Of a stretch of DNA of 64,000 bases, positions 1 to 4,195 are shown piece after piece. Within the stretch, counting starts at the first letter, position 1, and each line of letters starts with the position of its first letter. Below the pieces are notes generated by a model. That model did no database searches. It was not told the origin of the DNA and saw only the letters and a program-made list of their open reading frames with translations. The position numbers and the translations under genes are program-made. The stretch is from an uncultured Candidatus Saccharibacteria bacterium (GTDB taxonomy: Bacteria > Patescibacteriota > Dojkabacteria > J137), in NCBI GenBank assembly GCA_965230975.1, contig OZ246402.1, positions 573,009 to 637,008 on the forward strand, read 5' to 3'.

Positions 1-110
1 TAAAGCATTTTGCATTTAAGAATATTAGCATGAGTATTCTATTTTTTGTAAAGGGAGATTTATTGCAAAATTGTTTTGGTTAAACTATAATTACCATACC
101 TCAATAATAT

Positions 111-313
111 GCGGGTATAGTATATCGGTTATTTAGAGTGTGCTTTTAAGCACTTAGAACAAGGCAATTACCTTGCTCGCAATAACCGAAGCTAGAACAT
201 TTAAAAAGTGCGGGTATAGTATATCGGTTATTATTTTAAAGTAGCTTTAGCTACGATAAGATTAAGTCAATTTCTGATAGAAAAAATAACCGTTAGCAGA
301 ACATTTAAAAAAC
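111..313 (+). repeat. Two tandem partial copies of the tRNA-Gly 5' end (111-133 and 210-232), each followed by a unique hairpin-containing insert and a conserved 29-nt element (181-209, 285-313)
   Basis: The 23-mer gcgggtatagtatatcggttatt occurs at 111, 210 and 314; the third copy is the start of the intact tRNA. The element aataaccgNNNNNagaacatttaaaaaNN is conserved before copies 2 and 3. Its 5' end aataaccg is complementary to tcggttatt in the repeat. Confidence 0.7.
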
Positions 314-385
314 GCGGGTATAGTATATCGGTTATTATGACAGTTTTCCAAACTGTAGAGGGGGGTTCGATTCCCCCTACCCGCT
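314..385 (+). tRNA. tRNA-Gly (anticodon UCC)
   Basis: Hand-folded cloverleaf: acceptor stem GCGGGTA/TACCCGC, anticodon stem ACAGT/ACTGT with loop TTTCCAA (anticodon TCC), T-arm GGGGG-TTCGATT-CCCCC, 4-nt variable loop. No encoded CCA; followed by a T-run. Confidence 0.8.
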
Positions 386-495
386 TTTTCTTTATTTCTT
401 CAATTCTGGCAATCATTTAGTTTATACTACTAACAGTCTGCTCGATCAGATTCTAAAAATGTAGTAAAATTTTCACAATATTTAGTAGTATTAAA

Positions 496-1251: not shown

Positions 1252-1423
1252 TTGGTTCGAACTTCGTACACTAACCCGCTTTTCTACTAAGATCAATTTC
1301 ATTTAATTCCCACATCTTAATTAAACATCCAAGTCCATACTCTTTATATCTTGAACTAATCTAGTTATTTGCCCCACTAGTAGAGTACATGTTATCATCG
1401 GCTAATAAATTTGAAATATATTT

Positions 1424-2005
1424 ATGGATAGTCAAAATTTTACCCTTGCAATACGTACTAGGTTAGAATCTACCGAAGAGAGAAAAAAATCATGCAGTGA
1501 AAGGTATGATTATTATAGACTAAGGTTGATACCAACAGCACAGGCATTTTTAGCTTGTTTAGGAGCAGATGAACAAACAATACAAAGAATTAAGTCGTTA
1601 TTAGAAAATAGGGAATCGGGCATAAAGATGATTGAAATAGCCTCTTTATTAACTACAATGCAACATAAATTACCTAGATTACTACAATCAGCTTATAACC
1701 TAGACGAGAAGTTAGCTTACGAGGTGAAAGATGAGATATTGGAAGTATATGACAAGTTAATAGCTGCATTCACTGCATCTCAAGAATTAAAAAAATTTAC
1801 TAAGAATCCAGAAAAGATTAAATCAATTGTGAGGGCTTATTTACTTATACTATCAGCGTATAACGAGTTTATGAGTGAGATCCAATTAGCTCAATCATTA
1901 AATGAATTGGTACCAGGACTTGGAGAAAACTTTCTTAGTCATTACAATAATATTGTAGGTAAGATAGTAGGAACCATTCCACTTGGCGATGCTACAGAAG
2001 GATAA
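1424..2005 (+). CDS. hypothetical protein
   Basis: 193-aa ORF with no recognised motif. Confidence 0.45.
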   Translation: MDSQNFTLAIRTRLESTEERKKSCSERYDYYRLRLIPTAQAFLACLGADEQTIQRIKSLLENRESGIKMIEIASLLTTMQHKLPRLLQSAYNLDEKLAYEVKDEILEVYDKLIAAFTASQELKKFTKNPEKIKSIVRAYLLILSAYNEFMSEIQLAQSLNELVPGLGENFLSHYNNIVGKIVGTIPLGDATEG

Positions 2006-2132
2006 CCTCGCATAATGAAATTAATTTGGTTTAATAAGTTCTTCTAAGGGTATAGGTAACTAATGAGTAGATTATTATTATAATTGTTTCCATATTCTCG
2101 AAATAATATTCCCACTCCGCTATAATAATTGA

Positions 2133-2621
2133 ATGGAACTAATCCAAATAACAACACAAGACCTTGCACAAAAAGCTTCGGACTTTTTATCTACCTACAA
2201 TGCTTTTGAAGACTCGAAAGATTGGAACGAAGAAGAGGTAAGACATTTAGTAGAAACACCATTTAAAGCACTAGGAAACTTAGATTACTATGGGTGGATA
2301 ATGCTAGAAAATGAAAAAGTTATTGGATATATAGACTTAAGACGACACGAATTTGCGGATGGAGGATATTATTCTGATTGGTTCGCAGTTCATAAAGACT
2401 ATAGAGGAAAAGGTATAGGAAGCAATATGCTATCTGAAGTTGAAAAATTCGCAAAATCAATCAATGCAAGGTACATATTAATAGAAACAGGAGATATTGA
2501 TTTTTATATAAGAACAAGAAATTTCTACGAGAAGAACGGTTTTAAACAAGTTGGACATATTCCCGAATACTATTATAAAAATTGGGGAATGTATATTTAT
2601 CAAAAGATGCTAATAGTGTAG
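2133..2621 (+). CDS. GNAT family N-acetyltransferase
   Basis: Acetyl-CoA binding motif A (HKDYRGKGIGSNML), typical GNAT length. Confidence 0.75.
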   Translation: MELIQITTQDLAQKASDFLSTYNAFEDSKDWNEEEVRHLVETPFKALGNLDYYGWIMLENEKVIGYIDLRRHEFADGGYYSDWFAVHKDYRGKGIGSNMLSEVEKFAKSINARYILIETGDIDFYIRTRNFYEKNGFKQVGHIPEYYYKNWGMYIYQKMLIV

Positions 2622-3745: not shown

Positions 3746-4195
3746 ATGACAGAAATATTAGGTGTAACTGAAAGATATTTCCAATATCTACTAGATGAAG
3801 CAGAAAGATTATTAGAAGTTGGCGACTTCAAAGCTGTAGCTCTTCAAGTGCTTGTACCACATAATAATATGAGATCTGGTTGGACTCTTTATATAAGCCA
3901 AATGTACTACAATCCTGCAAACGAAGAGCAAAGACAAATGGTAGAAAGAATGAAAATAGTAATACTAAAAACTATACAGGGTATTATCCCCAATTTAAAA
4001 GCCTCAAGATCATGGTTTGACTTTGTTGAAATTGAATTTATTGCAAGACAACTTAGTAAACTCGGTAAAGAAGCACCTCGAGAACTTGTTAATCAAACAA
4101 GATCTTTAATACTAGAATCAGAAAGATTAGGCGCAAATAAGGATTTGGTATGGAAAGCTTTAAATTTATTACCATCAACTGAAACTGAAATATGA
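3746..4195 (+). CDS. hypothetical protein
   Basis: ORF only; stop overlaps the next start (ATGA). Confidence 0.4.
   Translation: MTEILGVTERYFQYLLDEAERLLEVGDFKAVALQVLVPHNNMRSGWTLYISQMYYNPANEEQRQMVERMKIVILKTIQGIIPNLKASRSWFDFVEIEFIARQLSKLGKEAPRELVNQTRSLILESERLGANKDLVWKALNLLPSTETEI

Follow-up and report, generated by a model that had tools for sequence, protein, structure and literature searches.

Why should a bacterial tRNA gene be preceded by a row of copies of its own 5' end? The question is raised by a tRNA-Gly(UCC) gene near the start of a 64-kb stretch of DNA (hereafter the window; G+C content 31%). A first-pass annotation of this DNA, made from its letters alone, offered three explanations: the scars of serial integration and excision, a family of leader-derived small RNAs sharing the tRNA promoter, or a tRNA-primed array of unknown function.

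The first 23 nt of the tRNA, GCGGGTATAGTATATCGGTTATT, were said to be present three times, and exact matches do occur on the + strand at 111-133, 210-232 and 314-336. A pattern search found no such set in 100 shuffles, and the array is more than chance. The spacing between copies, given earlier as 103-104 nt, measures 99 and 104 nt, which leaves a gap of 76-81 bp between successive 23-bp repeats. As had been described, only the last copy continues into a complete tRNA: ARAGORN places tRNA-Gly(tcc) at 314-385 on the + strand, where the Rfam tRNA model scores 62.7 bits. The gene is 72 nt long, does not encode CCA and is followed by a T-run at 385-389. Even with E values up to 10 the Rfam tRNA model matched 314-385 only and did not recognize units 1 and 2. 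Before each following copy stands the conserved element that had been pointed out, AATAACCG-N5-AGAACATTTAAAAA, at 181-207 and at 285-311, with no further occurrence in the 64-kb window. Its start had been proposed to be complementary to the D-loop part of the repeat, and the first 9 nt, AATAACCGA, indeed pair perfectly with TCGGTTATT; we refer to this segment as the anti-D-loop. The inserts between copy and element are 47 nt (134-180) and 52 nt (233-284) long, the sizes expected, and contain the anticipated hairpins GTGC/GCAC at 140-153 and GTAGC/GCTAC at 241-254. Insert 1 holds a second hairpin, CAAGG/CCTTG at 160-175, that had been overlooked, and GAG/CTC pairing (136-138 with 176-178) lengthens the helix between D-loop and anti-D-loop. 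Tandem Repeats Finder did not report the array, because its units are too divergent.

Assemblies made independently from other sequencing runs contain the same array without change (L001, L002 and, in part, L003), and a strain variant found in another sample (L078) keeps it with a few substitutions; an assembly artefact is thereby ruled out. Two HAD-hydrolase genes in divergent orientation flank the array, which fills the interval between them, and there are no further tRNA genes in L001 and L082, which extend the genome on both sides.

Transcription signals were sought around the array. A sigma-70-type promoter, TTGCAA-17-TATAAT, lies at 63-91 on the + strand; it matches the consensus at 10 of 12 positions and has a predicted start near 98-100, about 11 nt before copy 1. 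Scanning of the + strand revealed no other good promoter upstream of the tRNA and none between the units and the tRNA. The related locus L011 has a counterpart, TTGAAA-16-TG-TATAAT (11/12), upstream of its first copy, and none between unit and tRNA. As the sole good promoter lies 5' of copy 1, the tRNA would be transcribed through the units, judging from these consensus matches. Internal promoters in the linkers were also considered, and none was found. On the minus strand the same scan picks out TTGGAA-18-TATACT within the tRNA gene (window 322-351) at every related locus, which is probably a mere consequence of the tRNA sequence.

Leader module 1 (W1; 99 nt, 111-209, + strand) is composed of the tRNA 5' copy, a three-way junction, the anti-D-loop and an A-rich linker, and this three-way junction is its minimum free energy (MFE) fold, at -25.9 kcal/mol and z = -3.2. 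In the fold, nt 15-23 of the tRNA 5' copy pair with the anti-D-loop AAUAAC(CG), about 50 nt further 3', to form a helix, P1, and P1 together with a short P2 closes a three-way junction of two hairpins. The 5' strand of P1 is nt 125-133 (UCGGUUAUU) of copy 1 (111-133) and its 3' strand is anti-D-loop 1 (AAUAACCGA, 181-189). The core of the module (136-178) consists of P2 (136-138/176-178), hairpin a (140-144/149-153), a purine-rich junction, UUAGAA (154-159), and hairpin b (160-164/171-175). Linker 1 (AGCUAGAACAUUUAAAAAGU, 190-209) is A-rich and single-stranded, and all these features are on the + strand.

Counterparts of module 1 were looked for in other genomes. Among species-representative genomes only 7 contain an exact match to a 21-mer from the tRNA 5' end, and each is a CPR/Patescibacteria MAG (one 'Doudnabacteria', one Saccharibacteria, the others Dojkabacteria). 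In 3 of the 7 a unit stands 5' of tRNA-Gly(UCC), namely at L005, L011 and L009, the contig of the last beginning inside the unit. These loci share with module 1 a fixed order of parts: the 23-mer, UA, P2, hairpin a, a purine-rich junction, a 5-bp hairpin b, GC, AAUAAC(CG) and the linker. The helix sequences themselves are unrelated from locus to locus. P2, 3-4 bp long, reads GAG/CUC, GACA/UGUC, GGCU/AGCC or GUG/UAC, and the purine-rich junctions read UUAGAA, ACUUAAAA and UAUAAAAU. The anti-D-loop is found in all five units (5/5), as is a linker of 20-24 nt from AAUAAC to G1 with a UAAAAA-like run. When folded singly, module 1 and the units of L005 and L011 (L005U and L011U) each have the three-way junction as MFE structure, with z = -3.2, -3.2 and -2.3, respectively; for the unit of L009 (L009U) and the second module of the window the junction is not the MFE, and the model structure lies 7-8 kcal/mol above it.

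Because a MAFFT alignment of the units misaligns the hairpins, we aligned them with a covariance model, R1, seeded on module 1 alone. R1 scores L011U at 45.1 bits and L005U at 45.0 bits, as against 13-21 bits for plain tRNA 5' ends and at most 11 bits for the rest of the window. In the four-unit alignment 95% of cells are in standard pairs and both sides have changed in 12 of 22 pairs, values that none of 500 shuffles reached, counted on four sequences only and in an alignment fitted to the model. Slid controls, in which the partners were moved by 1-3 columns, gave 34-56% paired cells and 2-5 pairs changed on both sides. The inserts had been characterized as unique and spacer-like. They are unique in sequence, but the comparison with spacers fails for at least insert 1, which belongs to a structural family with counterparts in other taxa; as the fold of module 1 recurs there, insert 1 is not an arbitrary remnant. 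A metagenome scan with the pattern GTATATCGGTTATT-N35-65-AATAAC returned 55 loci, all of them chance matches devoid of tRNA context.

Leader module 2 (W2; 104 nt, 210-313, + strand) is less regular. It starts with the copy at 210-232 (24 nt if A233 is counted), has its anti-D-loop at 285-292 and ends in a linker at 293-313. Its helices, on the + strand within 210-313, are a UUUU/AAAA extension of P1 (234-237/281-284), the hairpin GUAGC/GCUAC (241-245/250-254) and a weak second hairpin (259-263/269-273). R1 scores it at 46.5 bits, mainly via the shared ends, and the three-way-junction structure lies 7 kcal/mol above its MFE. Module 2 has the two ends of the family and one hairpin, but its modelled core fold is uncertain.

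Of the three explanations offered at the outset, leader-derived RNA sharing the tRNA promoter fits these data best, in view of a promoter placed only 5' of copy 1 and a covarying fold in other CPR genomes. The module is probably a real, undescribed RNA element of CPR bacteria, derived from tRNA, and with moderate confidence we regard the modules as a selected, co-transcribed structured leader RNA. Promoter (63-91), short leader, modules (111-209 and 210-313) and tRNA-Gly(UCC) (314-385) would then form one pre-tRNA unit, the modules being transcribed as the 5' leader of pre-tRNA-Gly. From what is generally known of tRNA biology, RNase P would be expected to cut at 313/314, which would free the tRNA and leave a structured leader RNA some 215 nt long. 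Each anti-D-loop may be neutralized by the decoy copy upstream of it, a partner that is transcribed first and whose pairing P2 would stabilize further. The genuine D-arm would thereby stay free, and the released leader might be a processed by-product or a small RNA, like the tRNA-linked repeats of E. coli; both suggestions draw on the same general biology. The module might act in cis, as an aid to processing or folding, or in trans as a small RNA. Several points count against the leader-RNA reading: the units number four or five only, module 2 and L009U do not have the junction as MFE, the firmly placed helices contain almost no G.U pairs, and the module can be dispensed with, as described below. 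In addition, nucleotides 4-13 of the copy are unpaired in the model though identical across units, and MFE folds of the whole precursor display long-range mispairing among the copies instead of tidy modules. We also observed that GUAUAGUAUAU (116-126, 215-225 and 319-329) is quasi-palindromic, 10 of its 11 positions being self-complementary once G.U pairs are counted. Two copies can thus bind one another, which is what drives the long-range pairing in the whole-precursor folds.

The distribution of the units shows how far they can be dispensed with. A comparison of the locus for copy-number variation, which the first-pass annotation had recommended, proved informative: there are 0 to 2 units per locus. 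The same tRNA-Gly(UCC) is found with no unit at L006, L008, L010 and L077, so the module is not essential, and units are evidently gained or lost as a block between 23-bp direct repeats. L077 stands close to L011 and L009: the neighbouring DUF1801 proteins of L077 and L011 share 73% identity, and at L077 a homologous promoter (TTGATATAATTAC...) directly precedes the tRNA. Flanking genes differ at each unit-bearing locus, which implies that the unit travels with the tRNA and not with a neighbour gene. The DUF1801 neighbours of L011 yielded only L009 and one new locus, L077. In a synteny walk none of the homologues of the downstream HAD gene (identity up to 86%) adjoined a tRNA, and the upstream HAD protein had no homologue at E <= 1e-30 except itself.

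Such a pattern would also be left by a non-functional relic, that is, an old tandem or partial duplication of tRNA-Gly whose upstream copy is decaying while gene conversion from the selected downstream gene keeps the 5' end identical and recombination between the 23-bp repeats adds or removes units. The patchy occurrence among relatives, with precise absence at L077, and the variable copy number speak for this, as does drift in the first 1-3 nt of the upstream copy, which is A1 in L011 and, in L078, where only nt 4-23 are kept, GAA and not GCG. The fold of module 2 is weak, and ARAGORN can force L011U into a poor 'Phe(gaa)' cloverleaf at a threshold of 80% or lower. Neutral decay should however ruin helices, and three units with unrelated sequences keep perfect P2 and hairpins a and b at the same positions; the universal presence of the anti-D-loop points the same way. 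Neither module of the window nor L005U resembles a tRNA to ARAGORN, even at the 60% threshold, or to the Rfam tRNA model. Repeats of 23 bp are, moreover, short for efficient gene conversion. On balance we consider decay of a duplicated tRNA unlikely.

A functional alternative would turn the mispairing of the copies to account. With n copies of the 5' segment, n-1 anti-D-loops and one tRNA body, the copies could compete and the one left free decide the outcome: pairing of the genuine 5' end with the acceptor 3' strand would lead to productive RNase P cleavage, whereas pairing of an upstream decoy would give a dead-end precursor. Such a register shift would make the array a regulator of tRNA maturation. 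It fits the equilibrium precursor folds, in which the acceptor 3' strand is taken by the most upstream copy and pairing also occurs between copies. Against it stand the lack of the first three acceptor bases in copy 1 of L078 and the unreliability of long-range fold predictions, and we hold this regulatory role to be quite improbable.

The strain variant is informative about the strand on which the structure acts. In L078 the first anti-D-loop is AAUAAUCG, which changes a G-C pair to G.U and preserves P1 pairing in the + strand RNA; on the other strand the change produces an A.C mismatch. G.U pairs on the + strand are also found in L011 (P1 extension) and L009 (P2). Together these pairs favour an RNA structure on the tRNA strand. 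Elsewhere L078 differs from the window in the leader ahead of copy 1 and in the first three bases of that copy, in the five bases that follow P1 unpaired, and at position -1 of copy 2.

The strand-specific G.U pairs weigh against an element that acts as DNA, in which the palindromes and the direct or inverted 8-9-mers would serve as sites for protein binding, recombination or folding of single-stranded DNA, for instance as an operator array phased at about 10 helical turns or as the site of a hairpin-recognising recombinase. In favour of this proposal are the firmly placed helices (P2 and hairpins a and b of module 1, L005U and L011U), which are perfect Watson-Crick palindromes with almost no G.U. 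It is also in keeping with the 99-104 bp spacing, close to 10 helical turns, and with the 23 bits that R1 assigns to the reverse strand of module 1. No recombinase or regulator gene is linked to the element at any locus, however, no other copies occur in 74 kb, and in every case the element is placed between promoter and tRNA in the orientation of transcription. A role at the DNA level accordingly strikes us as doubtful, with little probability attached to it.

Still less credible is a series of site-specific integrations and excisions in the 5' part of the tRNA, each of which would have left a displaced 5' fragment and a remnant of the element. Partial tRNA copies beside a complete one are the classic footprint of integrated elements (PMC9897764), and in the window the 29-nt leader has been duplicated en bloc with the 23-mer. 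The footprints usually enclose 9-23 kb of element DNA (PMC9897764), whereas the repeats here stand 76-81 bp apart. The search upstream of position 1 for an integrase or mobile element, suggested by the first-pass annotation, was negative: no integrase, transposase, reverse transcriptase or cas gene was found in the 10 kb upstream (L001) or among the ORFs examined in the 64 kb downstream, which had housekeeping functions only. The Pfam scans covered the flanking ORFs and 10 of the 19 ORFs of at least 350 aa. Recombinase or element genes were likewise absent at L005, L007, L009 and L011. A comparison of the inserts with phage and plasmid sequences, also recommended there, was negative too: neither insert has a match in IMG/VR, among the INPHARED phages or among the PLSDB plasmids. 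A direct repeat of part of the tRNA gene is thus present, with no integrase or element genes between or beside the repeats, and the supposed remnant, insert 1, has a conserved fold that covaries in other taxa. We therefore set serial scars aside as very unlikely. A miniature CRISPR-like array of 52-bp repeats and 47-52-bp spacers, sizes within the ranges used by CRISPR finders, can be dismissed as next to impossible, since there are only two full repeats and one partial one, with variable positions inside the repeats, and structured 'spacers' that have structural homologues 5' of the same tRNA elsewhere, and neither cas genes among the ORFs examined nor protospacer matches.

The exclusions made in the first-pass annotation were upheld on the same evidence. 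The array is not a canonical CRISPR array; the tRNA is contiguous and has no Intron_gpI match, hence it is not an intron-containing tRNA; and since the copies come from the 5' part, a short distance apart and unaccompanied by element genes, they are not a typical 3'-end att duplication. A cmscan of positions 1-600 against Rfam 15, with E up to 10, placed only the tRNA above its gathering score, all others falling far below threshold. Several further classes were considered and rejected: a hammerhead or other small ribozyme (no conserved core and no Rfam match), an integron attC site (GTT/AAC boxes in the wrong order) and a REP or MITE (no other copies in 74 kb).

The closest parallel known to us has been on record in E. 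coli since 1978. There, tRNA-linked repeats (TLRs), such as rtT of the tyrT operon and RrA, RrB and RrF of rrn operons, are non-coding units in stable-RNA operons, 1-5 per locus, and each ends in 18-19 nt that repeat the 3' end of the stable RNA upstream of it (PMC8144298). TLRs are transcribed and processed from the primary transcript, and most have no known function (PMC8144298). Like a TLR, the CPR module copies an exact terminal segment of the adjacent stable RNA (23 nt) and occurs in 1-2 units per locus. The TLR lies downstream and carries a 3' copy, whereas the CPR module lies upstream and carries a 5' copy, in mirror image; and only in the CPR module does the copy form one strand of the closing helix, with the anti-D-loop, of a defined fold. 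The two show no sequence relationship and come from different phyla, and transcription and processing, established for TLRs, are predicted for the CPR module from the promoter-like sites upstream of the first copy. The relation is one of functional analogy, not of membership.

Other known systems share single traits with the array. With att sites it has in common a direct repeat of part of a tRNA gene beside the intact gene. Williams is said to have reported in 2002 that att repeats usually derive from the 3' part of the tRNA. Sites of this type flank kilobases of element DNA that includes an integrase (PMC9897764), whereas the copies described here are 5'-derived, closely spaced and free of element genes. 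Small RNAs from tRNA-operon spacers, such as 3'ETS-leuZ, are by-products of pre-tRNA processing that have acquired functions (PMC8144298). Those RNAs, unlike the CPR modules, contain no tRNA copy. To our knowledge no 5' leader with a conserved three-way junction has been described. Split and tri-split tRNA genes of archaea resemble the modules in that isolated tRNA 5' fragments are followed by sequence that can pair with a further RNA segment; they also have matching 3' halves and a bulge-helix-bulge, whereas here the tRNA is contiguous and no 3' fragment lies downstream. Finally, the group I introns that sit within tRNA genes in Patescibacteria are another case of unusual extra RNA with tRNA genes in the same phylum (PMC13011429). 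They lie in the anticodon loop, which they interrupt, have a much greater length and are recognized by Rfam intron models, in contrast to the uninterrupted tRNA of the window.

If the leader-RNA reading is correct, the modules represent an undescribed structured RNA motif, absent from Rfam 15, that is tied to a core gene, and 100-200 nt of retained non-coding sequence would be notable in very small genomes. A second independent case beside the TLRs would suggest a general principle, a candidate for which is the borrowing of a neighbour's determinants for end recognition or folding. For annotation, the lesson is that partial tRNA copies are not always integration scars. The register shift, if true, would constitute a new cis control of tRNA supply in CPR bacteria and could offer a clue to the TLRs of E. 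coli.

Several minor observations were made on the related sequences. The window and L078 form a mosaic (window 1252-2170 against L078 1687-2602; L001 9059-9520 against L078 3-464): the HAD gene and the tRNA array are 99.7-100% identical, the upstream HAD gene is only about 87% identical, and just downstream of the HAD gene the DNA is unalignable and the gene content different. The identity switch falls at the first three bases of copy 1. At the unit-less locus L077 (165-183), AAATAAC stands two bases before G1 and is complementary to GTTATT in the D-arm of that tRNA. In so AT-rich a leader the match is probably fortuitous; the leader is homologous to the one before copy 1 of L011 and not to the anti-D-loop. 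Viral sequences scanned with the 21-mer gave only a tRNA-Gln of a jumbo phage (L076), and scanned with the unit pattern only an iteron-like region (L081), both unrelated. The former, at 3760-3832 of a 208-kb jumbo-phage-like contig with 18 tRNA genes in 5 kb (IMG/VR UViG 3300031994_000006), is a tRNA-Gln(CTG) that over its first 23 nt almost matches the 5' part of the CPR tRNA-Gly.

A different arrangement was encountered at L007, in a Dojkabacteria MAG (JBDTVZ010000001.1, minus strand, about 1186-945), where an insert of about 173 nt splits the anticodon loop of a tRNA-Gly(CCC) after C36. Within this insert a complete tRNA-Gly(UCC) sits atop a long stem that the two insert arms form. The 251 nt of the locus fold as nested cloverleaves (-99.3 kcal/mol, z = -8.3) and match no Rfam intron family, and the outer halves, joined in silico, give a perfect 72-nt tRNA-Gly(CCC) by ARAGORN. 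We considered whether the array of the window had lost the right arm of such a nested tRNA, and rejected this because neither a complementary sequence nor a 3' half lies downstream. Two readings offer themselves for L007: a new bacterial split tRNA or intervening sequence of a type other than group I, or a tRNA gene that an insertion has inactivated. The locus is potentially of greater interest than the leader modules. Just downstream of the nested tRNA, at 459-809 on the minus strand, lies a gene for a 23S rRNA-intervening-sequence protein (PF05635, E = 5e-20).
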